This document shows positions 1-14,893 of a stretch of DNA of 14,893 bases, piece after piece. A program made the position numbers and the translations under genes. The notes beneath the pieces were generated by a model, which was not told the DNA's origin, ran no database searches, and saw only the letters and a program-made list of their open reading frames with translations. Numbering within the stretch: the stretch's first letter is position 1; each line of letters starts with the position of its first letter. The stretch comes from a virus (taxonomy: Duplodnaviria; Heunggongvirae; Uroviricota; Caudoviricetes): the IMG/VR virus record IMGVR_UViG_2737471841_000009, positions 1 to 14,893 of that record. The stretch is one strand, 5' to 3'.

Positions 1-585
1 TCAATACCCCACCGCTATAATGTCCACATTAAATCCCCCGGGACCTGCCTGCCAGATGCTGGCCCCTGTTAATGATTTTGTTTGATGAACAACCGCCACA
101 TTTGCTGGCGATTGTGTTTCAGTTGTTACAGTACCGATATCATTCCAGTTAATTGAGATGGAATAGTTCGTTGTTGTAAACGACCGGGGGAAAGTTATGT
201 GTCTTACATTGGTGCCGACAGGAAATCCAAGATAAACACGCTGAATTATCATTCCTCCAGGTAACATAACCCAGTTAGCACCTTCTCCAAAACCAAGGTT
301 TTCGAGAGCTGTTTTCACCGTGCCATCCGATTTGATATCGCCAAACGGATTCTTGCGGCTTAACAGCAGCGCACGAAGCGCGGTAAGCAGCTGGTCGTGC
401 CTCTCCTTCTCCAGGCTGGCACCGGATGCCTCCACCACGCTACAAAGCTCTTCCTGCAACATGTCAAAGTAGTCATCATCCAGATCGGTGGCAGGCGTGC
501 CGGTCTGGGGGTTGCCACGGGTAAAACCGTTCTTACCCGCGCCGAACTTATCCTTCTGCGCGGTTTTCGTGTCTATGCGATGCAT
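1..585 (-). CDS. Phage tail fibre protein, N-terminal part; gene runs off the window at position 1
   Basis: ATG at 585 placed 3 nt after the stop of the upstream baseplate gene. The N-terminus ([21 protein letters not shown]...[12 protein letters not shown]) resembles conserved tail-fibre N-terminal regions of P2/Mu/e14-type phages (recalled, not searched). The ORF is open to the window edge. Confidence 0.55.
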
Positions 586-588
586 GGA

Positions 589-1173
589 TTACTCCGGATA
601 TTTAAAAATTACGTAGGTATGAGACGGACAGAGTTTGTTAAGCACACATTCGACAACGGTGTCGCCCCAGATACGCAGTGCGGAATCACAGGGATCGCCA
701 CATGTCATCCAGGTGGTGTTTGTGGCGGCTGGCATGTTGACCTGCCAGTAATACCGCCATTCCGGCGCATTCACCGCGTCAGTACAGGCCGATGAGCAGG
801 TGAACGTGCTTTTGTCGTATCGCGTGATGGTAGCGTCTGGTCTGCCCAGGGCAGCAAGCTGTGCAAGATAAAAATTCTCGTTGATGCCGCCCGCCAGGTT
901 AACCTTCGCATCCAGCCGTTGCTGACGCTGGCGAAGGGTCTGTGTCCCTGCGGGAATACATTCATCCGGCAGACCGCACAGACGCTCCCAGCGGTTTATC
1001 AGTTCGGTGGTGGTGCGCGGATCCAGCTCCCGCATCAGGGCATCCGCACGCTGATGAACGCGGGTTAATGACGGTGCCGCACCGGCAATCGACGGATCGC
1101 TGGCTGACCACGCCGGACCGGGGGGCAACAGTGCCGACAACAGACGGATGTAATCATCGTTTGTCACGTCCAT
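589..1173 (-). CDS. Phage tail/baseplate protein, Mu gp48 / P2 gpI-like (same length as e14 YmfQ, 194 aa)
   Basis: 194-aa ORF with ATG at 1173. Its start overlaps the stop of the upstream J-like gene by 10 nt (ATGGACGTGA), indicating translational coupling. Position and size fit the gpI/gp48 slot. Family assignment is from recalled similarity. Confidence 0.55.
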
Positions 1174-2222
1174 GAAATCGTCCCCAGTACCGCCAGTTCA
1201 TTTTTTGCAATGGAGATATTGTCTGCCGGTGCAAGCAACTGATGGCTGTATTCCCCGTTCGCACCGGAAATCGCCTCACTGATACGCGATACCTTCAGTT
1301 CTCCCTGCGGATAACCATCACGCAGCAGGAACGAACGCAACTCCGCGGTGATGGCAGCCCGTATTTCCGGTGTGTCCGGCGTCACGCGGATATGAAAATC
1401 CACCGTATGTGCCACCGGCCTGAACACATACAAATCAGAGCCTGCCACCGGGGCCAGTGGCCCGATATGTTGTCTTGCCGCCGTTTCCGTTGATTCTTCC
1501 GGAATGGGATTAATCAGGTCACTGCTGGCAATCATCACACCGACAGTTCCCGTTCCCATCCAGTGACGGTATGTCCATGCGCGGGTAATGCCGGGCACTT
1601 CTTTAGCCCAGACGACATAGTCCCCGTCAGCCCCGCCCTGCGGCGTCCAGTAATACCGCTCAATGACGCGGGCGCGCCACGTTTCCAGCTCTTCAGTATC
1701 AAATCCGCCTGTCAGGGTGTCAGCCACACCGGAAGACGGCAGACCATTCACCGGCGTGACCAGGATTAATGCCGTACCGTCGTCAGCGTTACCGACCGCG
1801 CCTGCACTTGAGCAGGCGATCGGCACGCGCAGGACACCACCGGAGCTGGTTGCATCGGCAGTTGCCGTGTACTGAACCAGGTCATCGCGCTGAATAACAC
1901 TCCCGGCGGTCACCTTCAGGCCATCGCTGACACCTTCCCAGCGCATATACCCGCTGGCAGCCGTGGCCCCCTTGCGCGGACACCGTTTCATCGCAGCATG
2001 TCGCGCCAGCCAGGACTCATCGCACAGGTCAGGCAGCATGTTCATTGCCAGATAATCGATGTACCCGTAAACCGTATGCAGCGCCGCCGCATACACCTTT
2101 GCCCGCACGTCTTCATCCATGCGCCGGAGCGTGTCGCTGACGTCCAGCCTGGCGAATAAATCGTTACGGAGCATACTGATATTTTCTGCCAGCGTCGGGC
2201 GCTGAAATTCACTGTCCGCCAT
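1164..2222 (-). CDS. Baseplate J-like protein (Mu gp47 / P2 gpJ family)
   Basis: 352-aa ORF with ATG at 2222, overlapping the upstream gene by 14 nt. Size and synteny (between the gp46-like and gpI-like genes) fit the baseplate wedge protein. Confidence 0.6.
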
Positions 2223-2637
2223 GCGTTATCGCACTCCACAGATCATCAAAAGAAATCATTACCGGTCCGTCACGACGCCAGAGGGTGATACTGTTACCCA
2301 GTTCATTAATCCCGGTGCGGCGGATATCCAGATCAATACGGGACACCACGCCGTCATCAATCATCCATTGCAGGCATTCGCGGATATACCCCCTTACCGT
2401 CAGCACCAGCTGATTGGTCAGTTTGCTGCGCTGAAGCAGCCACAGTCGGGAGCCGTAACGGTCATTCTGTACCGCAGGCCAGGTATCCCCCCACCATCCC
2501 ATCGGGACGTCGGCGTTGTCATCAGGCTCCGCCCGCCGCCAGGTAAACAGGGAAATCACCACGGCGCGGGTCAGCGGATCCAGCGGTGCGCTGGCGCAGG
2601 TGCGTTTACCGTTCACCGTCAGCCACAGTTCCATCAT
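2209..2637 (-). CDS. Phage GP46-family baseplate protein (Mu gp46 / gpW-like)
   Basis: 142-aa ORF beginning ATGATG at 2637, with an ATGA overlap onto the upstream gene stop. Size and the motif GWWGDTW...GSRLWLL fit the GP46 family (recalled). Confidence 0.55.
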   Translation of the reverse strand: MMELWLTVNGKRTCASAPLDPLTRAVVISLFTWRRAEPDDNADVPMGWWGDTWPAVQNDRYGSRLWLLQRSKLTNQLVLTVRGYIRECLQWMIDDGVVSRIDLDIRRTGINELGNSITLWRRDGPVMISFDDLWSAITHGGQ

Positions 2638-3101
2638 GCCTCCATCGCTTTATCAGGTTTGTCGGTGTTACTGCCCTGACCGTTCTCTCTGTGACGATGC
2701 CCGTTATAGGCAAGCCGCATCGCTGACATGGTGGTGCCGCTGGAGTCGCACAGGTCTTTCACCTGTCCTGTCACTTCCAGGTCCATTTCAAAACGTGCTT
2801 TAGGTGAATTGCGAAACGTGATCGTTTTACCTGCACCGTCCACCACGATCCCCTCCCGGGTCAGCGTCACGGACTGCCCCTGATCGTCATAGACAGCCAC
2901 CTCACCCGTCTGCAGCCCTTTCAGGCGGTAGCGCCGGTCCGACACCGTAACAACCACCGCATGAGAACGGTCACCATCCGGAAACAACACCACCGCTTCC
3001 GCACCGCTGTTTGCTCTTGCGGTAAAACCGTAGGGTTCAAGATGTTCAACCCCGGCTTTGGGTTCCCGGCCATTTACCCGTAGCGTGACATTGTCGTTCA
3101 T
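2634..3101 (-). CDS. Small baseplate protein, gpV / Mu gp45-like (putative spike or hub component)
   Basis: 155-aa ORF with ATG at 3101 and an ATGA overlap onto the upstream gene. It sits between the DNA-circulation-like and gp46-like genes. Function is inferred mainly from synteny. Confidence 0.4.
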   Translation of the reverse strand: MNDNVTLRVNGREPKAGVEHLEPYGFTARANSGAEAVVLFPDGDRSHAVVVTVSDRRYRLKGLQTGEVAVYDDQGQSVTLTREGIVVDGAGKTITFRNSPKARFEMDLEVTGQVKDLCDSSGTTMSAMRLAYNGHRHRENGQGSNTDKPDKAMEA

Positions 3102-4252
3102 TGCACTGGCACCTTCAGAGGGATCACCGGCACAAAGCCGGGATGCGTAATGGCATTACGCCGGATAATGTCCGCGTCACGCGCCGCGTTATCAAACCAG
3201 GTCGCCGCCAGCACCAGCGCGGGTAAAACCTCATCCGGTGTGCGCTGAATGATCCGTGCAGACTGTTCAAGGCGCGTGTTGATATCCGCATTCAGATCTG
3301 CTTTCACCCGGCGCAGCGCCAGAAACAGCGCATCGCTGGTTGTACGGGACAACTCCTTATCAATTGCCGTATTCAGTGTGTCGCGAATGTCAGTCAGTTC
3401 TTCCCACGTCGGCAGGTCAACCGTGTTTTTCACCGCCGGTGCATTGTTCAGTGCCGGATGCGTGACGGAAGGCCAGCCAGTGCTCTGCGCGGGTGTTGTT
3501 GCCTGCCCCACTGCGGAATTCTGCATCACCGCGGAAGTTGTTGGCGCAGGCAATCGGGTGACGGCATACGCCGCTTCGCTGATTGCGGTTGTACGAAGGG
3601 TGCTGGCAACCACGTTACGCTGCTGCGTCGCCGTGGCGGTGGTTTTACTGTCCGTTTTCCAGACGCCGCGCGGTTGCAGATCGCTGCCGAGGCTGACACC
3701 GGAAAGCGTTTTGATCATGGTGACCAGGTCGCTGGCGTTACCATAAAGGCGTTTCCCGGTACGCCACATTTTCTGCACCTGCTCAACGAAATTTTTGCCT
3801 GACGATGGCGGCGGCAGAAGTACCGAGATATCCCCCTGCAACAGCCTGGCGGCATCCGATACGGCAGAATCCACCACTTTCATCGCATCAGAAACATACC
3901 CCAGCATTATGCTGGCATTACCGATAACGTCGTTCTGCACGAAATCCGCCACACCATCGATACTGAAACCGCTGAAGCTGTCACTGATGCAGTCATCCAG
4001 TGCAGAACAGGATGACATCAGCGTCTGCGCCGTCGCCGCACCTGATGTGGGGTAAGAGAGTTCTCCTGCTTCGACAAACTTCAGGTCAAAGCGGACAATA
4101 CGCCCTTCACTTTTCGATGTGCTGACCCGAACTTCCCCGTCAACACAGACTTTCAGCTCACCGTATGTCGGATGGACAAGCGTGCCGGGACCGGGTTTAT
4201 TCAGCGCGTCAATCAGGCGATCGCGCTGGTCAAAGCAGTCATCTCCCACCAC
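3098..4252 (-). CDS. Mu gp43-like 'DNA circulation' / baseplate hub family protein; 5' end apparently disrupted
   Basis: 384-aa ORF whose first codon at 4252 is GTG. The segment VVGDDCFDQRDRLIDALNKPGPGTLVHPTYGEL resembles the conserved core of the DNA-circulation N-terminal domain. The same frame stays open upstream to about 4340 with no SD or ATG, while a separate SD-preceded ATG ORF (4397-4239) lies in the +1 frame. Confidence 0.5.
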   Translation of the reverse strand: MVGDDCFDQRDRLIDALNKPGPGTLVHPTYGELKVCVDGEVRVSTSKSEGRIVRFDLKFVEAGELSYPTSGAATAQTLMSSCSALDDCISDSFSGFSIDGVADFVQNDVIGNASIMLGYVSDAMKVVDSAVSDAARLLQGDISVLLPPPSSGKNFVEQVQKMWRTGKRLYGNASDLVTMIKTLSGVSLGSDLQPRGVWKTDSKTTATATQQRNVVASTLRTTAISEAAYAVTRLPAPTTSAVMQNSAVGQATTPAQSTGWPSVTHPALNNAPAVKNTVDLPTWEELTDIRDTLNTAIDKELSRTTSDALFLALRRVKADLNADINTRLEQSARIIQRTPDEVLPALVLAATWFDNAARDADIIRRNAITHPGFVPVIPLKVPVQ

Positions 4253-4397
4253 ATAAGCCGTGATGGACGGGCGGAAAGTGACTTTTCCCAGATCTTCGGT
4301 ACGCGCCCCAGACGGTCGCCTCCACTGCGTCGCGGTTCTCCATCTTCTTCACTTCAGTAATGGCCTTGCGGGTTTTCTTTTTGAAAATACCAAACAT
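4239..4397 (-). other. 51-codon ORF (MFGIFKKKTRKAITEVKKMENRD...) out of frame with the downstream baseplate gene; possible remnant N-terminus or frameshifted 5' part
   Basis: ATG at 4397 preceded by AAGGA. The ORF ends at TGA 4239-4241, 13 nt inside the next ORF, which is in the +1 frame. Confidence 0.3.
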
Positions 4398-4535
4398 CGT
4401 GACTTTTCCTTTTAGTGGGTGAGCCTGCGCCCGGGGGTGACCAGCCCACAGAGAAAGTCACACTGACCATCCCGTAAGCTCACCCCTGAAAGGCTCTGTG
4501 GTTTTTTTGATGTGCGCCGGACGTGGCGCGGATAT

Positions 4536-4559
4536 AAAAAAGGCCCGCCGCAGCGAGCC
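4536..4559 (-). terminator. Intrinsic terminator downstream of the AraC-family gene
   Basis: On the minus strand a 7-bp GC-rich stem (GGCTCGC / GCGGGCC, one G-U pair) with a TGCG tetraloop is followed by T6 (plus-strand A6 at 4536-4541). It lies 26 nt after the stop at 4585. Confidence 0.6.
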
Positions 4560-4584
4560 TGTTTTCAATGAGTGCAAAATTCAA

Positions 4585-5328
4585 TTATTCTTGAGTAACA
4601 CTTAAACTCATCTCATTGAATGCAGCCATCCTGTAACCTGCCGGTGTAACACCAAAATAACTCCTGAATACGCTGATAAAATAAGATGTAAAATTATAGC
4701 CACACTGAGCAGCGATTCTGTTGATGGCGCAACGAGATTGATTCAACAGCATTGCTGCCATTCTCATTCTCTCTGTAAGCAACAACTCACTGAAACAGGT
4801 GCCTTCTTCTTTCAGTCTTTTTTTTAACAAACTTTCACTGATACATAACCGCGAAGACACATCTCTCAGAGTCCAGTTTGCTGCAATGTCCGTACGAAAC
4901 AATGCACTAAGCCTGTCACTAATATTGCCAATACACGCGGTCAGAAACGACGAAAACATTTTCTCTGATGAGAAAAACGCCAGACACGAAAAGGAAAGCA
5001 TTTCCGCTAAATTGTCCGTATGAATCTTTTCCTCACAAAGATAATCAATCAGGATGCCCATCAATTCTGCCTTGGGAAAACTCACGCAAAGATATCGTGG
5101 TATTTGCCGGACTAAAACTACATCCTGTTTTTCGTCTCCACACAACAGGTAACGGATAATTGTCGATTCACTGAGACTTATTCGCCGAAAACATTCCGAA
5201 AAGGGCAATAACGATCCAGCTCCCCCCCTGACAAGAAGTGCACTACCACTTTCCAGAGAGAGCTCTTTTCCTTCAAAGAGCACAACAAACGGGGAATGAA
5301 CAAAAACAACAGAACAAGCTTCATTCAT
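4585..5328 (-). CDS. AraC-family transcriptional regulator, AppY/Rns-like subfamily
   Basis: The C-terminal 100 aa show the AraC-type HTH signature (SESLLKKRLKEEGTCFSELL...CGYNFTSYFISVFRSYFGVTPAGY). The gene is visibly AT-rich compared with its flanks. ATG at 5328 is preferred over the TTG at 5388 used by the ORF track. Confidence 0.7.
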   Translation of the reverse strand: MNEACSVVFVHSPFVVLFEGKELSLESGSALLVRGGAGSLLPFSECFRRISLSESTIIRYLLCGDEKQDVVLVRQIPRYLCVSFPKAELMGILIDYLCEEKIHTDNLAEMLSFSCLAFFSSEKMFSSFLTACIGNISDRLSALFRTDIAANWTLRDVSSRLCISESLLKKRLKEEGTCFSELLLTERMRMAAMLLNQSRCAINRIAAQCGYNFTSYFISVFRSYFGVTPAGYRMAAFNEMSLSVTQE

Positions 5329-5450
5329 ATCAATTGCCCTGACATTACTGGTCACAAGATAAGTATATATCGATTTACAAAAATACAAGCCGAAAGACCA
5401 GTATTCGCAACCACCAGCGCGTTTAACGTCCTGTACCGTTTTTCAGGCAT

Positions 5451-5474
5451 AAAAAAACCCGCTCAGTGGCGGGT
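5451..5474 (-). terminator. Intrinsic terminator at the end of the cro operon
   Basis: Minus-strand hairpin ACCCGC-loop-GCGGGT followed by T7 (plus-strand A7 at 5451-5457), about 110 nt downstream of the stop at 5582. Confidence 0.5.
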
Positions 5475-5581
5475 TCTTAAATCTTATCAACGGTAGACAT
5501 ACAAAGCCCATCGTTGGAAAAATCTTATCCATATTTTTTGGAAAATGCAAGCATTATGTCGCCATCTTCGGCGAAAATCAT

Positions 5582-6247
5582 TTATCTCGTCACTTTTCTT
5601 AATTGCGCCTCAGCATATGCTTCTTCCTGCCAGCACTTTGTAACCAGTTTATCAATGACATCTGCATATCCTTTGTACCACTGATAATCTGTCAGGTCTG
5701 GTACCAGCTTCTGGACATGATGCCGCGCCAGTGTGGTTGGTAAACGGCTAAACCGGTTTCCATTGCAACGCCCACAAATCTTATAAACAGGCGTGCCATG
5801 AAGCCGGGTCCTTTTTTCATCCAGGACAATACCTTTACCCTTACACCCTCTGCACGCTGTGCTGACTTCTCCCTTACCATGACAATGCTGACATAGTTCC
5901 TTCAGCAGGCGCTGGTTTATATCGGCGTTCTCTACTTCCTCAATTTCAGGAAGCGATACGAACACCCCACCAGCAGACTGTGCGACAGCATCCGCAATGT
6001 AGTGAGTGCCAGCTGCGCGCTGTAAAACCATTGCCCATCCCAGCGGGAAAATCTGATCGCCATCGGCACGAAGGCGGTTAAATAATGCGCTCTCTGTTAC
6101 ATCCAGCCAGTCAGCAGCTTCAGCGTAACCCCCCGGCAACGCTGCGATAGTTTTTCTGACAGCTTTCACGTACCACTTAGGCTGTTTTTCTACTTTCCAG
6201 TGATGCTTACCCACGGCTATCTCCTTAAAACTGTGGTTACTTTTCAT
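5582..6247 (-). CDS. CII-position regulator (YdaT-like?) with a C-terminal Cys-rich zinc-ribbon
   Basis: ATG at 6247 overlaps the 3' end of the cro-like gene by 11 nt (the ORF track extends to a TTG at 6319). The gene occupies the cII/ydaT slot after cro. C-terminal motifs CQHCHGKGE, CRGCKGKG and CGRCNGNR are DnaJ-like CxxCxGxG repeats. Confidence 0.45.
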   Translation of the reverse strand: MKSNHSFKEIAVGKHHWKVEKQPKWYVKAVRKTIAALPGGYAEAADWLDVTESALFNRLRADGDQIFPLGWAMVLQRAAGTHYIADAVAQSAGGVFVSLPEIEEVENADINQRLLKELCQHCHGKGEVSTACRGCKGKGIVLDEKRTRLHGTPVYKICGRCNGNRFSRLPTTLARHHVQKLVPDLTDYQWYKGYADVIDKLVTKCWQEEAYAEAQLRKVTR

Positions 6248-6485
6248 CTGATGAATCTTTAATCTTTTGAAAAATATCTGGACGTAATTTTTCTTTTGAT
6301 ATGCCAGTGGTCTTTTCAATGAATATCGAGAGCTTTGCAGGGGGACGCTTTTCTCTGTTCAACCAGTTCCAGACATGTTGTTGCTTTACTAAATGACCGC
6401 TGCTGGCTGTGAGCTTCCGAGCCAATTCTGATTGACCACCAGCCAGAGCGATTGCCTCCGATAAGGCTAATTGCTCAGGTGTCAT
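6237..6485 (-). CDS. Cro-like repressor (YdaS / Cro-CI HTH family)
   Basis: 82-aa ORF with ATG at 6485 preceded by AAGGAG. It is transcribed divergently from the CI-like gene across an operator-rich intergenic region. The sequence (QSELARKL...LRPD) resembles the YdaS-type Cro family. Confidence 0.65.
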   Translation of the reverse strand: MTPEQLALSEAIALAGGQSELARKLTASSGHLVKQQHVWNWLNREKRPPAKLSIFIEKTTGISKEKLRPDIFQKIKDSSDEK

Positions 6486-6620
6486 AGCTTTCTCCTTTTT
6501 AGGTAGTTAAGTTGTTACGAGTTGCAAGAATACAACATTAACAACTTTTATCACAACTTTTAGGTGTTGGAAAGCTAAAACATAAAGTTGTAACCTCATC
6601 AAAAAAGAGAGGGATATGTT
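6486..6620. promoter_or_regulatory. OR-like divergent promoter and operator region between cro and cI
   Basis: 135-bp AT-rich intergenic region with repeated half-site-like motifs: AAGTTGT at 6509 and 6585; ACAACTT at 6541 and 6553; AGGTGTT at 6562. The 11-mer CATAAAGTTGT (6581-6591) recurs at OL (8234-8244). Confidence 0.65.
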
Positions 6621-7307
6621 GTGAAAACACTGGCAGAACGATTAAAGATAGGTAGAGAGAAAGCTGGCATGAGCCAAGCTCAACTAGCTGAAAAAATTGG
6701 ACTTTCACAACAATCTGTAGCCAAAATAGAGAATGGCGAAACTCTACAACCGCGCAAAATTAAAGAAATTGCAAAAGTTTTAGGTGTATCACAAAAGTGG
6801 TTACAACTTGGTATTGAAGACAACGCATCCATACCTGATCTTGTTGTAAAAGAAGCAGAAAGCACCGCATTAGACCCCGATATTTTCGTAAACATTCCTG
6901 TTTTAGATGTCGAGTTATCGGCAGGTAACGGATGTCTGGCTGAAATAGTTGAATCAGCTATTGACTGGTTTCCGTTAAGAAGAGCAGATTTGAGAAAATC
7001 TGGCGTATGTGCATCTAATGCCAAGATCGTAAAAATATGGGGGAACAGTTTATTACCGGTTCTCAATAATGGAGATCTTGTTGCCGTTGATATTTCTCAA
7101 ACCGTTCCTATTCGTGATGGCGATCTTTATGCCGTACGAGATGGTGTATTGCTAAGGGTTAAAATACTTATCAACTTACCTGACGGTGGCTTGATTCTTA
7201 GAAGCTTCAACAAAGATGAGTACCCAGATGAAATACTCACCTTTGAAGATAGACGAGCCAGAATTCATGTTATAGGTAGGGTATTCTGGTCATCGCGAAC
7301 TTGGTAA
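6621..7307 (+). CDS. CI-like prophage repressor (XRE-type HTH plus S24 LexA-like autopeptidase domain)
   Basis: GTG start at 6621 preceded by GAGAGGG. N-terminal HTH (MSQAQLAEKIGLSQQSVAKIENGE). An Ala-Gly candidate cleavage site (LSAGNG) and a Ser/Lys dyad (WGNSLLP and LLRVK) are present. Confidence 0.85.
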   Translation: MKTLAERLKIGREKAGMSQAQLAEKIGLSQQSVAKIENGETLQPRKIKEIAKVLGVSQKWLQLGIEDNASIPDLVVKEAESTALDPDIFVNIPVLDVELSAGNGCLAEIVESAIDWFPLRRADLRKSGVCASNAKIVKIWGNSLLPVLNNGDLVAVDISQTVPIRDGDLYAVRDGVLLRVKILINLPDGGLILRSFNKDEYPDEILTFEDRRARIHVIGRVFWSSRTW

Positions 7308-8180
7308 TGCATCGAAAAGCATTTCTTCAGAAATAATTTTAAGTTTTGCACCATTATCATCCCTATAAGATATAGCCTTTTCGATCTTCCTTCCGTGACT
7401 TGAGAATTTCCAATCACGGGAGGAAAGCGTCCCAATTACTAAAAAATCCAACTTTTGAGTAATTCCACTACTGATGTTCCCACCAGCATTTTTAATCAAA
7501 TTTTCAACTACGGCTCTCTTTCCTGCAACAAAAGTGCCTGTAAGACAATAGGTTTTACCCTCTAACTCTATCGAAGCCCCTACATCAATAGGCAGCCTGG
7601 TCGCCAAACCATCCACCACCCCACTTTCCAAGTCACATCCTGTGAAGTCTACTAATGCCTTATGTAGAGTTAAACTCTCATCTTCAGTAATAACACCATC
7701 TTTAAGAATTTCCTTTACAAGTGCATAAAGTTTTTTTCCTGGGTAGTTGTTCTTCAAAGCTCCATTTTGCTCAAGCCACCAATTAAGATATCTTATTTCT
7801 TCTTGAGTTAAGTTCCGATCAGCAATTAATCCTTTACATAGTCCATTAAGTAAATGGACATCTACATCCTTGGAGTAAAAATCAATTTCAGGGATATCAA
7901 GAATTTCCCTCTGTATTTGGAGAAGGCTATTTTTAAGGTCATCACGTTCTTCTGATGTGATTATTCCATCCGCAAGAATATCCGACACCCGTGCTGATAG
8001 ACTTTTTATAACTCCATTATTGATAATCTGCTTTGCTTCAAGTAACCATGTATCTAAGTAAAGAACCTCCTCTTCACGGACAACTCCATCTGCAATGATT
8101 CCATCAATGATGCTAATCAAGTTAGCAAATAACTTGTCCCGGTTCTGTGTGTAATTAAAAGCGTAAAGCGCGTCTTCCAT
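7290..8180 (-). CDS. Moron protein: four tandem ~40-aa repeats plus a C-terminal BRCT domain; candidate exclusion or defence effector
   Basis: ATG at 8180 preceded by AGGAGG (the ORF track extends to a GTG at 8210). Repeats centre on IIADGVVREEEVLYL, ILADGIITSEERDDL, LIADRNLTQEEIRYL and ILKDGVITEDESLTL. The C-terminus (GKTYCLTGTF...LDFLVIGT...KLKIISEEMLFDAL) matches the BRCT fold pattern of LigA-type BRCT domains. Confidence 0.8.
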   Translation of the reverse strand: MEDALYAFNYTQNRDKLFANLISIIDGIIADGVVREEEVLYLDTWLLEAKQIINNGVIKSLSARVSDILADGIITSEERDDLKNSLLQIQREILDIPEIDFYSKDVDVHLLNGLCKGLIADRNLTQEEIRYLNWWLEQNGALKNNYPGKKLYALVKEILKDGVITEDESLTLHKALVDFTGCDLESGVVDGLATRLPIDVGASIELEGKTYCLTGTFVAGKRAVVENLIKNAGGNISSGITQKLDFLVIGTLSSRDWKFSSHGRKIEKAISYRDDNGAKLKIISEEMLFDALPSSR

Positions 8181-8230
8181 ACAACCTCCTTTTTTTGATA
8201 ATCCTTGCACTCCTTGGCTACTCGTTCAAA

Positions 8231-8290
8231 CCACATAAAGTTGTTGACAACATTCAAAACCACAACTAAATTACAACTTAAAGGTGTTAA
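8231..8290 (+). promoter_or_regulatory. OL/PL-like operator and promoter region for the early-left operon
   Basis: -35 TTGACA (8244-8249), 17-bp spacer, -10 TAAATT (8267-8272). Operator-like motifs are shared with OR: CATAAAGTTGT (8234-8244), ACAACT (8262-8267), ACAACTT (8273-8279), AGGTGTT (8282-8288). Confidence 0.55.
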
Positions 8291-8382
8291 AACAACGAAC
8301 AGGCAGGACGCCCACGAAGTAGCCGCCGGTGGCGTATGAATGACCGGATGATTCGTTAAATACTATGTGTAAGAGAGCGCAA

Positions 8383-8586
8383 ATGAACCGTTATTTCACA
8401 TGCTCGTTTTGTGGCGCAAACGAGCTGCAGGCAAAAAAAATCATCGCCAAAGGCGGAAAAGATGAAGTTGCTATCTGCTCTGAGTGCGTAGTCTTGTGTG
8501 TCGGGGCATTAATCAATATCAGCACAACTATTCAGTTCACACCAAATGAGAATGCGCCTTTAGATGCGCGGAAATCTGGAGGTTAA
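8383..8586 (+). CDS. Small ClpX-type C4 zinc-finger protein; first gene of the early-left operon
   Basis: ATG at 8383 preceded by AAGAGAG (the ORF track starts at an upstream ATG at 8365). The motifs CSFCG and ICSECVVLC match the ClpX N-terminal zinc-binding domain pattern (CSFCGK...ICDECV). Confidence 0.6.
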   Translation: MNRYFTCSFCGANELQAKKIIAKGGKDEVAICSECVVLCVGALINISTTIQFTPNENAPLDARKSGG

Positions 8587-8594
8587 AGAACAAA

Positions 8595-8870
8595 ATGAAA
8601 GTCCAGATTTTAAACAATAACTGTGAAGTCGTTTGGTCATACGACATAGCCGCCCCTGTAGATCAGAGCGGCGATAGCTGGACCAATGGGAAACATCAGA
8701 TTATGGCTGGAGTTGTGTTCTCTTTACGCCGTGCTTTGGAACAGGCTGAAGTATTTCCATCAGACCCTGAATGGAAATGGCCTTTTTCTATTTGTCCAAA
8801 TTCGGAGAGCACATTTCAGAAAATTGGTCAGAAAGTCGCACTCGAAGAGCATCAGCCAACTGTTTCCTGA
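8595..8870 (+). CDS. Hypothetical protein (91 aa)
   Basis: ATG at 8595 with GGAGG 12 nt upstream, co-oriented with the PL operon. No recognisable domain. The 3' end overlaps a convergent ORF, so the true end is uncertain. Confidence 0.4.
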   Translation: MKVQILNNNCEVVWSYDIAAPVDQSGDSWTNGKHQIMAGVVFSLRRALEQAEVFPSDPEWKWPFSICPNSESTFQKIGQKVALEEHQPTVS

Positions 8871-9033
8871 TTTTTTCAGGTAACTCGTCGGCATCGCAGA
8901 AACAACAACGCTCGATCATGTTGAAAGCCGATTCGTAGAACTGTTTCTGCTGAGTGTCGCTGAGACAGGAAAAGAGCGACGTTACGATGATTTTATTAAT
9001 TGCATTATCAAGTTCTTTTTCATCAAAAGTCAT
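8788..9033 (-). CDS. Hypothetical protein (81 aa), antisense to the early-left operon
   Basis: ATG at 9033 preceded by AAGGA at 8-nt spacing. Cys-containing (CCFC) and acidic. Overlaps the 3' end of the 91-aa plus-strand ORF by 83 nt. Confidence 0.4.
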   Translation of the reverse strand: MTFDEKELDNAINKIIVTSLFSCLSDTQQKQFYESAFNMIERCCFCDADELPEKIRKQLADALRVRLSDQFSEMCSPNLDK

Positions 9034-9129
9034 TTGATTTTCCTTTTATGTATACGGGCTTAAAAGGATACCACCGAGCCTGAAGTGGTGAAAAGACAGG
9101 CACATAACAGCTAAGTATTTTCAACCAAA

Positions 9130-9450
9130 GAGAATCCTTAGCGTTGTGGTGAATGCGGCTCAGCGCACGCGGGTTAAGGTTGAGGCTGACAGTCGACCTT
9201 CTGTGGATACCCACCCGTCTGGTGTGCAACCTTCGCCAGGCACCGGGAGGCACCCGGCACCACAACTTTATGCTGTGTGTAGTCCTGGCGGTACCAGTTT
9301 GTACCCTTGCTTCCGGCTGGTACCGTCCTTTTTACAAAACAGAGAAGAGCATCACCGGACGACGGGCTCATAACCCAATCCATCCGGGCGGCTGCTACCG
9401 CAGGTGTTCTTCTCTGTTTTGTGGAGAAACTAATCGGCCTTGCAGGGTCG
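9130..9450 (+). other. GC-rich, ORF-poor structured segment; candidate structured RNA or cis-regulatory element
   Basis: All frames carry Arg/Pro-rich ORFs with no SD. Perfect 15-bp inverted repeat 9334-9348 / 9408-9422 (ACAAAACAGAGAAGA). An 11-bp stem 9287-9297 / 9317-9327 is followed by CTTTTT. A small hairpin CCGGG-AGGCA-CCCGG lies at 9243-9257. Confidence 0.4.
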
Positions 9451-9470
9451 ATATGATGAGGAGCAGCAAA

Positions 9471-9833
9471 ATGGCTAGCGAACGCAGTACTGATGTGCAG
9501 GCATTTATCGGGGAGCTGGACGGCGGCGTATTTGAAACCAAAATCGGCGCAGTTCTCAGTGAAGTCGCTTCCGGTGTGATGAACACGAAAACCAAAGGTA
9601 AGGTCTCACTCAACCTGGAAATCGAACCATTTGATGAGAACCGTGTGAAAATCAAACACAAACTCTCATATGTTCGCCCGACTAACCGCGGGAAAATTTC
9701 CGAAGAAGACACCACCGAAACGCCGATGTATGTCAATCGCGGTGGTCGCCTGACTATTCTGCAGGAAGACCAGGGACAATTACTGACTCTTGCCGGTGAA
9801 CCTGACGGAAAACTCCGCGCAGCAGGTCATTAA
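9471..9833 (+). CDS. yfdP: YfdP-like prophage protein (120 aa)
   Basis: ATG at 9471 preceded by GAGGAG; length and sequence match my recollection of K-12 CPS-53 YfdP. The ORF track's upstream extension (from 9153) lies in GC-rich non-coding-looking sequence and is rejected. Confidence 0.6.
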   Translation: MASERSTDVQAFIGELDGGVFETKIGAVLSEVASGVMNTKTKGKVSLNLEIEPFDENRVKIKHKLSYVRPTNRGKISEEDTTETPMYVNRGGRLTILQEDQGQLLTLAGEPDGKLRAAGH

Positions 9834-9898
9834 TATCGTTCTTAATTAACTGATTATTTATCTCATCACTGAATATCTTTATATAGTGAGGACTTATT

Positions 9899-10723
9899 AT
9901 GTCTCAGAACTTAGACGCAACCGCAATTAATCAAATCCATGCCCTTATTTCTGCTCAGGGTGTTAATGAAATTATCAGTAAGATTGGTGCCGATGCTGTG
10001 GCATTGCCTGAGAATTTCCGCATTCATGATCTGGAAAAATTTAATTTAAATCGCTTCCGTTTCCGTGGTGCGCTTTCCACTGCCAGCATCGATGACTTTA
10101 CCCGTTATTCTAAAGATCTTGCAGATGAAGGCACCCGCTGCTTTATCGATGCTGATAATATGCGTGCCGTCAGTGTGCTTAACCTGGGTACTATTGATGA
10201 ACCAGGTCACGCAGATAACACCGCCACTCTCAAACTGAAAAAGACAGCACCGTTCTCTGCTCTGTTGTCTGTTAATGGCGAGCGTAACTCCCAGAAATCA
10301 CTGGCAGAATGGATTGAAGACTGGGCCGACTACCTTGTGGGCTTTGATGCTAATGGTGACACCATTCAGGCAACAAAAGCGGCTGCGGCGGTCCGTAAAA
10401 TCACGATTGAAGCAAACCAGACCGCTGATTTTGAAGATAATGACTTCAGCGGCAAACGCTCCCTGATGGAGTCTGTCGAAGCGAAGACCAAAGACATTAT
10501 GCCAGTGGCATTTGAATTTAAATGCATTCCGTTTGAAGGTCTGAAAGAACGTCCGTTTAAATTACGCCTCAGCATTATCACTGGCGATCGTCCGGTACTG
10601 GTTCTGCGCATTATTCAGCTGGAGGCGGTGCAGGAAGAAATGGCTAACGAATTTCGTGATCTGCTTGTTGAGAAATTCAAGGACAGCAAAGTAGAAACCT
10701 TTATTGGTACTTTCACCGCCTGA
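9899..10723 (+). CDS. yfdQ: YfdQ-like prophage protein (274 aa, uncharacterised DUF family)
   Basis: ATG at 9899 preceded by GTGAGGA. Length and N-terminus ([17 protein letters not shown]) match recalled K-12 YfdQ. Colinear with the yfdP to yfdT order. Confidence 0.7.
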
Positions 10724-10735
10724 TTTCATTACTGC

Positions 10736-10757
10736 AAATGCCCCTGCGGGGGCATTT
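10736..10757 (+). terminator. Intercistronic hairpin (weak terminator or attenuator) between the yfdQ-like and yfdR-like genes
   Basis: Perfect 9-bp stem AAATGCCCC / GGGGCATTT with a TGCG tetraloop. The downstream tail ATGGAAACG is not a clean U-run. Confidence 0.35.
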
Positions 10758-10850
10758 ATGGAAACGTAATTTACTCAATAATCGCCGGATGGTGAGGGAT
10801 TCTTTTTACCAGAATTCAGCGCGGTGCAGCGCATATACGTGGAGAACAAA

Positions 10851-11387
10851 ATGTCATTTATTAAAACTTTTTCCGGGAAGCATTTTTATTATGACAGGAT
10901 AAATAAAGACGACATCGATATTAACGATATCGCGGTTTCCCTTTCAAATATCTGTCGCTTTGCCGGTCATCTTTCGCACTTCTACAGCGTCGCCCAACAT
11001 GCGGTTCTTTGCAGCCAGCTGGTGCCGCAGGAATTTGCTTTTGAAGCGTTAATGCATGATGCAACAGAAGCGTATTGCCAGGACATTCCCGCACCACTGA
11101 AACGCCTTCTTCCTGACTATAAACAAATGGAAGAAAAAATAGACTCCGTAATCCGTGAGAAATACGGATTACCCCCAGTTATGAGTACGCCCGTGAAATA
11201 TGCCGATCTCATCATGCTGGCAACCGAACGCCGCGATCTCGGGCTTGATGATGGCTCTTTCTGGCCTGTACTGGAAGGTATCCCGGCAACAGAGATGTTC
11301 AACGTGATTCCACTGGCACCGGGCCATGCCTACGGGATGTTTATGGAACGCTTTAACGAGTTATCGGAGTTACGCAAATGCGCATGA
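10851..11387 (+). CDS. yfdR: YfdR-like HD-domain phosphohydrolase (178 aa)
   Basis: ATG at 10851 preceded by GGAG (the ORF track starts at 10824). HD-domain motif residues (H...HD...D) are present, and length and sequence match recalled K-12 YfdR. Confidence 0.7.
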   Translation: MSFIKTFSGKHFYYDRINKDDIDINDIAVSLSNICRFAGHLSHFYSVAQHAVLCSQLVPQEFAFEALMHDATEAYCQDIPAPLKRLLPDYKQMEEKIDSVIREKYGLPPVMSTPVKYADLIMLATERRDLGLDDGSFWPVLEGIPATEMFNVIPLAPGHAYGMFMERFNELSELRKCA

Positions 11388-11740
11388 ATGTTTTCGAAAT
11401 GGAAGGGTTTCTTCGTGGGAGATGTGTACCGCGAGATCTGAAAGTAAATGAAACAGATTCTGAATACCTGGTGCGTAAATTCGATGCGCTTGAAGCTAAA
11501 TGTGCAGCACAGGAAAACAAAGTAATACCAGTGTCAACTGAACTGCCACCAGCAAATGAAAGTGTTTTGTTATTCGATGCTAACGGAGAAGGCTGGCTAA
11601 TTGGTTGGCGTTCTCTCTGGTACACCTGGGGACAAAAAGAAACCGGAGAATGGCAGTGGACATTTCAGGTCGGGGACCTTGAAAACGTCAATATCACTCA
11701 CTGGGCAGTAATGCCAAAAGCACCGGAGGCTGGAGCATAA
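11378..11740 (+). CDS. yfdS: YfdS-like prophage protein (120 aa)
   Basis: Start overlaps the yfdR-like stop; its own stop overlaps the next start (ATGA at 11738-11741). Length matches K-12 YfdS. Confidence 0.65.
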   Translation: MRMNVFEMEGFLRGRCVPRDLKVNETDSEYLVRKFDALEAKCAAQENKVIPVSTELPPANESVLLFDANGEGWLIGWRSLWYTWGQKETGEWQWTFQVGDLENVNITHWAVMPKAPEAGA

Positions 11741-12045
11741 TGACCACTTTTACCGACAAAGAACTGATTAAAGAAATTAAAGAGCGTATCAGCAGCCTTG
11801 ACGTGCGAGACGATATTGAGCGCCGTGCTTATGAAATCGCACTCCTATCTCTGGAAGTAGAACCAGATGAACGCGAAGCTTATGAATTATTCATGGAAAA
11901 GCGTTTCGGTGACTTAGTAGATCGTCGGAGAGCAAAAAACGGCAATAACGAATACATGGCATGGGATATGACTCTCGGTTGGATCGTCTGGCAGCAACGA
12001 GCTGGTATCCATTTTTCAACAATGTCACAGCAAGAGGTGAAATAA
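11740..12045 (+). CDS. yfdT: YfdT-like prophage protein (101 aa)
   Basis: ATG at 11740; its stop TAA (12043-12045) overlaps the excisionase ATG (TAATG). Length matches K-12 YfdT. Confidence 0.65.
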   Translation: MTTFTDKELIKEIKERISSLDVRDDIERRAYEIALLSLEVEPDEREAYELFMEKRFGDLVDRRRAKNGNNEYMAWDMTLGWIVWQQRAGIHFSTMSQQEVK

Positions 12046-12395
12046 TGGAGCCATACAGCCTCACACTCGATGAGGCCTGTCATTTTCTCAAGATATCCAG
12101 ACCGACTGCCATTAACTGGATACGCACAGGGCGTCTTCAGGCAACACGCAAAGATCCCACTAAGAATAAATCTCCTTACCTCACAACACGACAAGCCTGC
12201 ATTGCGGCTCTTCAGTCTCCGCTGCATACTGTCCAGGTGAGCGCGGGTGATGGCATAACAGAGGAAAGAAAATGTCACTCTTCCGCAGAAGTGAAATATG
12301 GTACGCCAGTTTCACATTGCCGAACGGTAAAAGATTTAAACAGTCTCTTGGAACAAAGGACAAAAGGCAGGCGACAGAGCTCCATGACAAGCTAA
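12045..12395 (+). CDS. xis: Excisionase (P22 Xis-like, 116 aa)
   Basis: ATG at 12045 preceded by AAGAGGTGA. N-terminal HTH ([26 protein letters not shown]). 116 aa matches the P22 Xis length. Sits immediately upstream of int and overlaps it by 124 nt. Confidence 0.7.
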
Positions 12396-13435
12396 AGGCT
12401 GAAGCATGGCGGGTCAGCAAACTTGGTGAAATACCTGATATGACGTTTGAGGAAGCGTGTGTCAGGTGGCTCGAAGAGAAAGCACATAAGAAATCACTGG
12501 ACGATGACAAAAGCCGGATCGGATTCTGGCTTCAACATTTCGCAGGGATGCAACTAAGAGACATCACTGAATCAAAAATTTATTCAGCGATGCAGAAAAT
12601 GACAAACCGGCGTCATGAGGAAAACTGGAAACTCAGGGCAGAAGCATGCAGAAAAAAAGGGAAACCTGTTCCAGAATACACGCCAAAACCAGCGTCCGTT
12701 GCAACGAAGGCTACGCATCTTTCATTTATAAAGGCCCTGCTAAGAGCCGCAGAGCGTGAATGGAAAATGCTGGATAAGGCACCAATTCTTAAAGTGCCTC
12801 AACCGAAGAATAAACGTATCCGCTGGCTGGAGCCTCATGAAGCACAAAGGCTGATTGATGAATGTCCGGAGCCATTAAAGTCTGTTGTTGAATTTGCACT
12901 GGCAACAGGCTTAAGACGCTCGAACATCATCAACCTTGAATGGCAACAAATAGACATGCAGCGCCGGGTGGCATGGATAAACCCGGAAGAGAGTAAATCA
13001 AACCGCGCAATTGGCGTTGCGCTGAATGATACTGCATGTCGCGTATTGAAAAAACAAATCGGGAATCATCACCGTTGGGTATTTGTATACAAGGAAAGCT
13101 GTACCAAACCAGACGGAACGAAAGCGCCAACGGTCAGGAAGATGCGGTATGACGCAAACACAGCCTGGAAAGCGGCGCTGAGACGAGCAGGTATTGATGA
13201 TTTCAGATTTCACGACTTGAGACACACCTGGGCAAGTTGGCTGGTTCAAGCCGGAGTCCCGTTGTCAGTGTTACAGGAAATGGGAGGCTGGGAGTCTATC
13301 GAAATGGTTCGTCGATATGCTCACCTCGCACCTAATCACCTTACCGAACATGCACGGCAAATAGACTCGATCCTGAACCCATCGGTCCCAAATTTGTCCC
13401 AGTCAAAAAATAAGGAAGGTACTAATGATGTGTAA
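12272..13435 (+). CDS. int: Tyrosine-recombinase integrase (P22 Int-like, 387 aa)
   Basis: C-terminal catalytic region [15 protein letters not shown]...VRRYAHL (R/H-x-x-R/Y signature). The gene ends 14 nt from the 3' end of thrW, the known P22 attachment tRNA. Length equals P22 Int. Confidence 0.85.
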
Positions 13436-13470
13436 CTTATTGATTTAAATGGTGCCGATAATAGGAGTCG
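13436..13470. other. Prophage–host junction (att core region) at the 3' end of thrW
   Basis: The interval between the int stop and the 3' part of the tRNA; tRNA-integrating phages carry the core homology over the tRNA 3' end. Exact core limits cannot be set without the other prophage end. Confidence 0.4.
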
Positions 13471-13525
13471 AACCTACGACCTTCGCATTACGAATGCGCT
13501 GCTCTACCAACTGAGCTATATCGGC
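13450..13525 (-). tRNA. thrW: tRNA-Thr (anticodon CGU), 76 nt with encoded CCA
   Basis: Reverse complement reads GCCGATATAGCTCAGTTGGTAGAGCAGCGCATTCGTAATGCGAAGGTCGTAGGTTCGACTCCTATTATCGGCACCA. Acceptor stem GCCGATA/TATCGGC, anticodon loop TTCGTAA, T-loop GGTTCGACTCC. Adjacent to proA as in E. coli. Confidence 0.93.
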
Positions 13526-13639
13526 CCTGAAAGGACATGTTCACGAACGTGAATCACGGTGGACAAGGTTAAAACTAACCGGGCGATGCGTCAATGGCCT
13601 TGTGAATCAAATGGCTACTTTTGCATCACCCGGTTTTAT

Positions 13640-14893
13640 TTACGCACGAATGGTGTAATCACCAATGCCGATCCACTTGTAAGTGGTCAGTGCTTCCAGC
13701 CCCATTGGGCCACGCGCGTGGAGTTTTTGTGTGCTTACCGCCACTTCCGCACCCAGACCAAACTGGCCGCCGTCGGTAAAACGCGTAGAGGCGTTAACGT
13801 AAACAGCGGACGAATCCACTTCGTTAACAAAACGCTGGGCGTTGCGCATATCGCGGGTCAGGATCGCATCGGAGTGTTGTGTGCCGTGTTCACGAATATG
13901 GGCGATGGCATCGTCAAGATCGCTGACGATTTTGACGTTCAAATCTAATGACAGAAACTCATCGTCATACTCTTCGGCTTTAACAGCAACCACCTTCGCA
14001 GGGCCTGCCTGCAACTGCGCCAGTGCAGCTGCATCTGCGTGTAATGTCACGCCGCTTTCCGCCATTTGTTTGCTTAATGCGGGCAGGAAGCTATCGGCGA
14101 TGTTTTTATTCACCAGCAACGTTTCAACCGTATTACATGTGCTCGGACGCTGAGTTTTCGCGTTGACGATCACTTTTAATGCTTCAGCGATCTCTACACT
14201 TTCATCAACGTAAATATGGCATACGCCTATACCACCTGTGATCACCGGGATTGTCGACTGTTCACGGCACAGTTTATGCAAACCAGCGCCACCACGCGGG
14301 ATCAGCATGTCGATGTATTTATCCATACGCAGCATTTCACTGACCAGCGCACGGTCAGGATTATCAATCGCCTGCACGGCACCCGCCGGTAAGCCGCAGG
14401 ATTTCAGGGCGTCCTGAATCACCGCCACCGTTGCAGCGTTAGTGCGACACGTTTCTTTGCCACCGCGCAGGATCACCGCATTACCGGTTTTCAGGCACAG
14501 CGAAGCGACATCAACCGTCACGTTCGGGCGCGCTTCATAAATCACGCCAATAACCCCCAGCGGTACGCGACGACGCTCAAGACGCAGGCCGCTGTCCAGT
14601 ACGCTGCCATCGATTACCTGCCCCACCGGATCGGCGAGGTTACACACCTGGCGCACATCATCGGCAATGCCTTTCAGCCGTGCGGGCGTCAGTGCCAGAC
14701 GGTCAAGCATCGCTTCGCCAAGGCCATTGGCACGCGCGTCAGCAACATCCTGGGCGTTAGCGTTGAGGATGATTTCGCTTTGTGCTTCCAGTTCATCGGC
14801 GATTTTTTCCAGCACGCGATTTTTTTCGCGGCTGGAGAGTTGCGCTAATTTATACGAGGCTTGCTTCGCGGCAATGCCCATTTGTTCCAGCAT
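13640..14893 (-). CDS. proA: Gamma-glutamyl phosphate reductase (glutamate-5-semialdehyde dehydrogenase)
   Basis: 417-aa ORF whose ATG is the last three bases of the window. Sequence matches my recollection of E. coli ProA ([50 protein letters not shown]...). Confidence 0.93.

Follow-up and report, generated by a model that had tools for sequence, protein, structure and literature searches.

The window analysed here, a stretch of 14,893 nucleotides (nt) comprising positions 1 to 14,893 of the IMG/VR record IMGVR_UViG_2737471841_000009 from a tailed virus (Caudoviricetes), encodes on its minus strand, at 7290..8180, a 296-aa protein that belongs to the family of Orf2 of the Vibrio cholerae phage K139 and carries a duplicated helical module followed by a BRCT domain. 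The gene is regarded as a promising, though not wholly new, candidate phage-exclusion gene. In the reading put forward here, which is given about an even chance of being correct, this Orf2-family protein is expressed in the lysogen and protects it against superinfecting phage, with the BRCT domain reading 5'-phosphorylated DNA ends or nicks. The phenotype in this reading is borrowed from K139 Orf2, and we infer lysogenic expression here, the binding of DNA ends and the mode of exclusion.

Relationship to Orf2 of Phage K139

A BLASTP alignment of the protein with K139 Orf2 (NP_536630) extends over 282 of the 296 residues at 33% identity (E 3e-48), and the tblastn match to K139 orf2 covers 95% of the query. 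K139 Orf2 is 301 aa long, contains the same two helical modules and matches the Pfam BRCT model with 26.8 bits, above the cut-off; the domain order common to both proteins consists of the duplicated helical module, a G-x-ATRLP-like linker and a BRCT domain with an SRDW...GRKIE insert. Identical copies of Orf2 are present in Kappa (as kp3), VPUSM 8, 919TP and VcP032.

In the K139 record, a lysogenic promoter with a mapped start site is followed by cI, orf2, glo (annotated as “involved in phage exclusion”) and int. The abstract of the 1999 study by Nesper and co-workers is said to state that Orf2 takes part in preventing superinfection. Both orf2 and the window gene lie just past the 3' end of a prophage repressor gene, within the lysogeny module. 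They differ in that K139 is P2-like and has a CI of the 186 type (Phage_CI_repr/CI_C), whereas the window phage is lambdoid with an S24-type CI, and in that orf2 is co-transcribed with cI, glo and int, whereas the window gene runs towards cI from a promoter of its own by the left operators (OL). For superinfection protection by K139 Orf2, a review cites Nesper et al. 1999, and it is for K139 only that this phenotype is reported. The K139 literature that was found does not discuss a BRCT domain or a repeat architecture, and the paper on 919TP is silent on orf2 itself.

A preliminary description of this DNA, made from the sequence alone, had recognized no characterized defence or exclusion family with this architecture. 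This turned out to be incorrect, K139 Orf2 being a full-length homolog that was reported in 1999. The proposal made there of a novel exclusion or defence gene gains support from the homology to K139 Orf2 and from the kinship with the PADLOC model PDC-S48 described below, while the word “novel” is overstated because a partly characterized relative has existed since 1999. The gene is not new in kind, but belongs with that prophage factor of 1999 and with a catalogued defence candidate.

The Gene and Its Product

The open reading frame (ORF) runs from an ATG at 8180 to a stop codon at 7292-7290 and is preceded, 7 nt before the ATG, by the Shine-Dalgarno sequence AGGAGG (8187..8192, minus strand). 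The ATG, the Shine-Dalgarno sequence and an A-run are all conserved in a footprint of the 260 nt upstream of the gene across 19 diverged homologous loci, in which conserved blocks are separated by variable spacers. The ratio of nonsynonymous to synonymous substitution rates (dN/dS) against a 92%-identical homolog is 0.05, indicating strong purifying selection; more distant pairs, although saturated at synonymous sites, retain 60-83% protein identity. The ORF, ribosome-binding site and start codon given in the preliminary description are thus confirmed by the translation, by the conservation in the 19 loci and by the dN/dS, which rules out a spurious ORF. An in-frame GTG further upstream, at 8210, was also considered as the start, and the homologs and the conserved Shine-Dalgarno sequence favor the ATG. 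Over its whole length the protein matches phrog_3989 (1.5e-128), and it is identical to the database protein WP_000389078.1.

A Pfam scan of the 296-aa protein finds no nuclease or NTPase domain, and the protein has no transmembrane segment (maximum 19-residue Kyte-Doolittle mean 1.52), in agreement with what had been seen by eye; a membrane exclusion protein was rejected on the latter ground. The protein is cytoplasmic, with an acidic N-terminal part (isoelectric point, pI, 4.45) and a basic C-terminal BRCT domain (pI 8.8). The guanine-plus-cytosine (GC) content of its gene is 38%, compared with 48.9% for the window.

The BRCT Domain and Its Phosphate Pocket

The BRCT domain that had been proposed at the C-terminus (residues 206-290; 7311..7565, minus strand) is confirmed, both by the Pfam model PF00533 (29.0 bits against a cut-off of 21.3), which is also matched by 58 of 61 relatives, and by the topology of the AlphaFold2 prediction, which fits the β-α-β-β-α-β-α BRCT fold. 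By family profile, the nearest solved BRCT structures are those of RFC1 (4.8e-8) and bacterial LigA (about 1e-6). The conserved residues T214-G215, R222 and S254-R255 align with T415-G416, R423 and S457-K458 of RFC1, which, in a finding ascribed to Kobayashi and co-workers, reportedly bind the 5' phosphate of a DNA end. These pocket positions (T-G, R and S-[RK]) are invariant or nearly so throughout the family, as is an SRDW...GRKIEKA segment within the BRCT domain, which is invariant and distinctive of the family. The domain keeps the RFC1/LigA-type phosphate pocket, and binding itself is predicted from it; a sensor or scaffold acting on host machinery, as suggested in the preliminary description, is one possibility, and the pocket points more directly to phosphorylated DNA ends.

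The likeness to the BRCT domains of RFC1 (p140) and LigA lies in the sequence match, the common fold and the conserved T-G, Arg and Ser-Lys/Arg positions. RFC1 has a clamp-loader AAA+ module and LigA has adenylation, OB and HhH domains, all of which are absent from the prophage protein, in which Pfam finds the BRCT domain only. Because the ligase domains are absent, the name “NAD-dependent DNA ligase”, under which some homologs are recorded, is a mis-annotation, and a LigA fragment was rejected on the same Pfam result.

Kinship with PDC-S48 and Links to Nucleases

PADLOC gives no match to the protein besides PDC-S48 (PDLC05027/05028), for which query residues 119-251 align with model positions 239-377 of 411 (E 2.4e-7); the same model is matched by 52 of 61 diverse family members, the best at 4.7e-14. 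The last helical module and the BRCT domain are what PDC-S48 and the window protein share. PDC-S48 differs in having an N-terminal DEDDh 3'-5' exonuclease (model positions ~8-164; present in the genuine members P0208 and P0255, of which the P0208 locus is too short to give information), whereas the window protein has no RNase_T or DEDDh match. As only the C-terminal part of PDC-S48 is matched, the window protein is a nuclease-less relative and not a member.

Nuclease genes were also observed next to family genes. In a Chromatiales locus (L088), a DEDDh (RNase_T) exonuclease gene at 5339-6007 overlaps the start of the family gene, and in the Sulfurimonas phage SNW-1 (L181) a thermonuclease-family gene at 4055-4486 follows the family gene after a 3-nt gap. 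Both arrangements are separate-gene versions of the fused PDC-S48 architecture.

The Helical Modules

The N-terminal part contains, as had been described, four tandem repeats of ~40 aa, the cores of which are IIADGVVREEE (residue 28), ILADGIITSEE (68), LIADRNLTQEE (118) and ILKDGVITEDE (158). A profile-profile comparison (hhalign) on a diverse family alignment shows that they form a duplicated module of ~80 aa, residues 10-93 being related to residues 107-184 with a probability of 99.7% and an E-value of 2.5e-26. Each module is in turn built from two helix-loop-helix units of ~40 aa whose mutual relationship is more distant, which is reflected in E-values of 8e-20 for repeats 1 and 3 and 1.7e-12 for repeats 2 and 4, versus 1e-6 to 4e-4 for the cross pairs. 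AlphaFold2 predicts four helices per module. Module 1 (residues 10-93; 7902..8153, minus strand) comprises repeats 1 and 2, which carry D-G-x-[IV]-x-x-x-E cores, and its predicted helices span residues 10-29, 36-52, 56-69 and 76-93. Module 2 (residues 107-184; 7629..7862, minus strand), with repeats 3 and 4, is the one retained in PDC-S48 and in short family members of ~210 aa, which align to profile positions ~105-292. Both four-helix modules are acidic, with conserved Asp/Glu pairs.

A resemblance of the repeats to TerB/DjlA-N-type proteins (PF05099 clan), noted earlier as an impression, extends to the repeated [IL][IL]-A-D-G-x-[IV]-x-x-x-E motif and to helix-loop-helix units arranged in four-helix bundles, but not to a profile match, the query having none to TerB (Pfam PF05099) at E <= 0.1. 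Among 61 relatives there are 9 weak TerB matches (best 9.5e-5) and 2 matches to DUF533, and the relationship to TerB is weak. The literature search gave nothing relevant on TerB in combination with BRCT.

Position in the Immunity Region, Operators and Promoters

The neighboring CI-type repressor gene (6621..7307, plus strand) encodes 228 aa with Pfam HTH_3 and Peptidase_S24 domains. The BRCT gene is convergent with it, the 3' ends overlapping by 18 nt, and past the repressor gene there is a YdaS/cro-like gene in divergent orientation, as well as a CII-like gene. The window is enriched in an operator-like motif, ACAAC-N5-G[GT]{T,G}GT; ACAACTTNNNG occurs at 5 sites versus 0.53 expected, a number that is reached in 0 of 200 shuffles, and four of the five sites fall in the cI-cro intergenic region and at 8234-8283. 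The operator-like sites of the right operator region (OR), between cI and the cro-like gene (6553..6591, without strand), are ACAACTTTTAGGTGT at 6553-6567 and ACAACTTTATG at 6581-6591 on the minus strand. Those at 8234-8283 place OL and the promoter PL just upstream of the BRCT gene. The proximal site, ACAACTTTATGTGGT (8230..8244, minus strand), was found in the motif scan and in the 19-locus footprint, and its 12-mer ACATAAAGTTGT recurs at 6580-6591 in the cI-cro region. The distal site, ACAACTTAAAGGTGT (8273..8287, plus strand), overlaps the predicted PL start. The half-sites of the OL sites are swapped between loci (ACACC..GTTGT versus ACAAC..GGTGT), as expected for a dyad operator.

Between these sites lies a PL-like σ70 promoter (8244..8272, plus strand; TTGACA, 17 nt, TAAATT), which scores 10/12 in a consensus scan and whose hexamers are kept in the 19 loci. 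It points to the right, into an early-left operon that encodes, in this order, a ClpX-zinc-finger-like protein, YfdP/Q/R-like genes, an integrase and a tRNA. The position of the BRCT gene between cI and OL, as originally described, is upheld by the operator-like sites together with this promoter.

A putative promoter of the BRCT gene itself (8201..8229, minus strand) was recognized in the footprint. It comprises a -35 element TTGAAC (8229-8224), a 17-nt spacer and an extended -10 element TGCAAGGAT (8209-8201), with a predicted start at ~8194; the footprint consensus on the gene's strand, TTGA[AT][CT], a variable 17-nt spacer and TG[CT]AAGGAT, corresponds to a weak -35 with an extended -10. The consensus scan, for the strength of which this promoter lies too low, missed it. 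It stands back-to-back with PL, the predicted starts at ~8194 and ~8279 being about 85 base pairs apart, and the center of the proximal operator lies ~43 nt before the predicted start of the gene and ~42 nt before that of PL. The proximal operator abuts the -35 of the BRCT-gene promoter, with no operator on its -10 or start, whereas the PL start is covered by the distal operator. This layout is the geometry of lambda PRM/OR2/PR, and it suggests that the BRCT-gene promoter would be active, or even stimulated, with CI bound.

The same arrangement, back-to-back with PL and abutting an OL operator, could be read as that of an early lytic gene, a very unlikely possibility in which CI at OL would repress the promoter and the gene would be expressed on induction or infection. 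Its product would then act on host DNA metabolism, e.g. by blocking host ligase or end-processing nucleases, and antisense transcription into cI would reinforce the switch; as the two genes are convergent with overlapping 3' ends, transcription of the BRCT gene would indeed oppose cI expression. Against this stand the homologs in K139, Pseudomonas phage phi1, locus L006 and Aeromonas prophages, which lie on the repressor's strand and downstream of it, the K139 homolog being part of a mapped lysogenic transcript, and the absence, unlike at PL, of an operator over the -10 or start of the promoter.

The preliminary description had compared the location with the slot that holds rexAB in lambda. 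The map position between the repressor gene and OL/PL is the same and, as with RexAB, the cargo is of low GC; co-transcription with the repressor is shared as well, but in other phages of the family. Being convergent with cI and having its own promoter, the BRCT gene occupies the rexAB slot but is not a RexAB-like transcription unit. It further differs in that the window protein has no sequence similarity to RexAB (the PADLOC search yielding no RexA or RexB homology), is single and soluble without a membrane component, and is transcribed towards cI.

Several minor observations concern the same regulatory segments. The 5' leader of cI resembles that of the BRCT gene, 6598-6612 (ATCAAAAAAGAGAGG) corresponding to 8185-8199 (ATCAAAAAAAGGAGG) as the inverted repeat I12, which hints that the two genes share translation-initiation or regulatory features. 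The fifth exact copy of the motif, ACAACTTTATG at 9262-9272 on the plus strand, lies upstream of the YfdP-like gene and may represent either an additional CI site or a coincidence; it falls within a GC-rich stretch of ~400 nt (9040-9450) without a convincing ORF, the counterpart of which in E. coli ECCHD184 is annotated as a frameshifted pseudogene. The PL leader (8293-8350, plus strand) contains a GC-rich sequence of ~60 nt, CGAACAGGCAGGACGCCCACGAAGTAGCCGCCGGTGGCGTATGAATGACCGGATGATTCG, that is highly conserved in most loci despite unrelated flanks. A put/nut-like RNA at this place was considered and dropped because the leader folds no better than shuffled sequences (z 0.09) and has no Rfam match. 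On the minus strand of the leader, a terminator-like hairpin is present at 8315-8299.

Distribution and Genomic Neighborhoods

The identical protein WP_000389078.1, recorded as “BRCT domain-containing protein”, is encoded in 47 of 5426 complete E. coli genomes, as a single chromosomal copy in each; in E. coli ECCHD184 it lies in an apparently complete prophage at the tRNA-Thr gene beside proA. Homologs with 68-89% identity occur in Serratia, Citrobacter, Klebsiella, Salmonella, Enterobacter and others. A convergent CI homolog with an abutting 3' end accompanies the gene in all of the 85 enterobacterial loci with a close homolog, which are redundant, many being near-identical, and represent about ten identity classes (69 to 100%); the same arrangement is found in loci L169-L171. 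The flanks past OL and past cro are mosaic among these loci.

An exhaustive profile search with a threshold of E <= 1e-3 recovered ~3,483 family clusters (50% identity), of which 394 remain at E <= 1e-30. Among the best 150 representatives, both modules plus BRCT are present in 111, 35 are one-module short forms of ~210 aa and 4 have an N-terminal DEDDh exonuclease; some members are fused to a LigA-like HhH2+BRCT. A profile search with the N-terminal region returned only BRCT-bearing proteins and no alternative C-terminal effectors. Megablast against sequenced phages gave no match to the gene, and a protein-level search of them found K139 and Pseudomonas phages. The E. coli prophage protein, K139 Orf2, the short forms of Pseudomonas phages and PDC-S48 thus constitute one large family.

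The neighborhoods were surveyed in 79 loci, one genome per species. A CI-type repressor gene is immediately adjacent to the family gene in 14 of them, being upstream and co-directional in 8 and downstream and convergent in 6, so that without exception the 3' end of the repressor gene faces the family gene; a repressor gene lies within three genes in 20 of the 79 loci, and an integrase gene within 6 kb in 13. As individual cases, Pseudomonas phage phi1 has a short form located 30 nt downstream of the repressor gene and co-directional with it, the family gene is likewise co-directional with the repressor gene in L006/L007, a metagenomic homolog of 45% identity is separated by 56 nt from the S24-type CI gene upstream of it, Aeromonas prophages have cI, two small genes and the homolog all on one strand, and in phage Lodos the family gene stands beside an integrase gene. 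Such a survey had been proposed in the preliminary description to look for enrichment next to CI-like repressors; besides the 14 loci with adjacency on the 3' side, it gave no prophage marker nearby in about two thirds of all those surveyed. The two intervening genes seen in the Aeromonas hydrophila prophage (L175/L176, 4584-5890), which encode 181 and 254 aa on the same strand as cI and the BRCT-family gene, the latter product having a weak DUF1828 match, are further candidates for lysogen-expressed cargo.

The neighboring repressors belong to unrelated families (S24 type here, Phage_CI_repr/CI_C in K139), which argues for shared lysogenic expression rather than for a specific repressor partner. 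This bears on an unlikely alternative, in which the protein is a DNA-damage-sensing regulator of the lysis-lysogeny decision, its BRCT domain detecting nicks or ends, or a phosphorylated or ADP-ribosylated signal, and modulating repressor inactivation or induction alongside CI. The tight and repeated linkage to repressor genes of several types and the location within the OL-OR immunity block would agree with such a role, and the effect of K139 Orf2 could, if it reinforces immunity, equally be read as “preventing superinfection”. In a literature search for BRCT proteins linked to prophages or phage defence, the one relevant remark found is in a 2026 preprint on Roseobacter prophages, which describes regulatory modules with cI and BRCT-domain proteins and proposes a DNA-damage response for them. 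It has to be noted, though, that this statement is genomic speculation, that linkage to the immunity block is expected of any cargo located there, and that a specific protein-protein mechanism is improbable for partner repressors that are unrelated and include non-S24 types. Moreover, in the survey across species the majority of family members lack a repressor in the vicinity, and members are found fused or adjacent to nucleases and DNA-binding HhH modules rather than regulators. Should the protein tune induction after all, it would constitute a new input to the lysis-lysogeny switch.

Another alternative is a DNA-repair or replication accessory, i.e. a scaffold through which exonuclease, ligase or clamp-loader-like activities would reach nicks and gaps, and which the prophage would carry as a fitness moron to the benefit of the lysogen, lacking any direct anti-phage role. 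The RFC1/LigA type of the BRCT domain is compatible with this, as are the fusions to a DEDDh proofreading-type exonuclease or to LigA-like HhH2-BRCT, the position of the gene directly after ligA in one locus (L166), the many chromosomal members without prophage markers and the strong purifying selection. It is nevertheless held to be quite unlikely in view of the K139 Orf2 phenotype, the strong enrichment beside phage repressors and integrases, and the choice of the relative PDC-S48 as a defence-island candidate by PADLOC; the GC content of 38% versus 48.9% and the patchy presence in 47/5426 E. coli genomes are both typical of mobile cargo.

Proposed Mode of Action

In the model preferred here, that of a lysogen-expressed exclusion factor, the protein is an accessory component of a temperate-phage immunity module that is most likely expressed from the prophage and helps to shield the lysogen from superinfection. 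Its basic BRCT domain would recognize 5'-phosphorylated ends or nicks in phage DNA that is entering the cell or being replicated. Once bound, it would impede the joining of ends, ligation or replication, or would bring in a nuclease; in PDC-S48, the same module is fused to a DEDDh exonuclease. A regulatory or partner-binding function would fall to the two acidic four-helix modules.

A number of points weigh against this model. The superinfection phenotype of K139 Orf2 is second-hand and could reflect help to immunity rather than exclusion, and at 33% identity the function may have drifted. PDC-S48 is only a computational candidate, on which no publication was found. The window protein has no effector domain, and stand-alone proteins make up 124 of the top 150 representatives of the family. 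The promoter of the gene is weak, and it may be activated by CI, indifferent to it or repressed by it. OL and OR have to fit the repressor, and whatever stands between them is passed on along with it, so the co-divergence of cI and the BRCT gene alone is no proof of functional coupling. A dN/dS of 0.05 is unlike that of a fast-evolving arms-race sensor. Finally, about two thirds of the 79 loci have neither a repressor nor an integrase gene within 6 kb, and copies in Aeromonas and Vibrio species have chromosomal surroundings that are conserved, so that the ancestral role may lie in DNA metabolism, not defence.

A more specific and bolder version of the exclusion model, offered as a tentative possibility, holds that the protein is a nuclease-free BRCT reader of DNA ends that is widespread in Proteobacterial temperate-phage immunity modules and halts superinfecting genomes after entry. 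It would cap 5'-phosphorylated ends or nicks, e.g. by competing with host LigA or by blocking circularization, and would be gated by the two acidic, possibly cation-binding, four-helix modules. If true, this would represent a mechanistic class of exclusion not described so far, based on the BRCT subtype with which eukaryotic RFC1 reads DNA ends, and would explain the phenotype of K139 Orf2, to which prevention of superinfection has been attributed for 25 years with no mechanism given, and whose BRCT nature is not noted in the sources found. The location of many prophage copies on the 3' side of the repressor gene, together with the RFC1/LigA-type phosphate pocket, makes the hypothesis directly testable. 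Its confirmation would establish post-entry exclusion without an enzymatic domain and a bacterial immune use of a domain of the eukaryotic DNA-damage response.

Other Features of the Window

At 5582-6319 on the minus strand lies a 245-aa ORF that joins a CII-like N-terminal part (Phage_CP76, residues 52-155) to a C-terminal part of antiterminator Q (PF03589, residues 150-237). The match to other E. coli prophages breaks off at ~5900, and the junction is found in 0 of 5426 complete E. coli genomes. The junction looks like a deletion that took the replication, lysis and head genes, in which case the window prophage would be a remnant in which cI and the BRCT gene are intact. An AraC-family regulator gene (HTH_18/HTH_AraC; 4585-5388, minus strand), possibly a moron-type regulator, separates the Q remnant from the tail/baseplate genes, which include Baseplate_J at 1164-2222.

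The first gene of the PL operon (8365-8586, plus strand) encodes 73 aa with little beyond a ClpX-type C4 zinc finger (PF06689, 1.4e-10; phrog_5259), a protein that could mimic ClpX or interfere with its recognition of substrates or adaptors. It is followed by two small ORFs on opposite strands, 8595-8870 (plus) and 8788-9033 (minus), the 3' ends of which overlap by 83 nt; they have full-length PHROG matches (phrog_3195, 3.8e-65; phrog_3311, 1.2e-55), and the minus-strand ORF is not annotated in the ECCHD184 RefSeq record. Directly past the integrase gene (12272-13435, plus strand; PF00589) lies a tRNA gene (13453-13525, minus strand; Rfam 71.8 bits), which is likely the attachment site.

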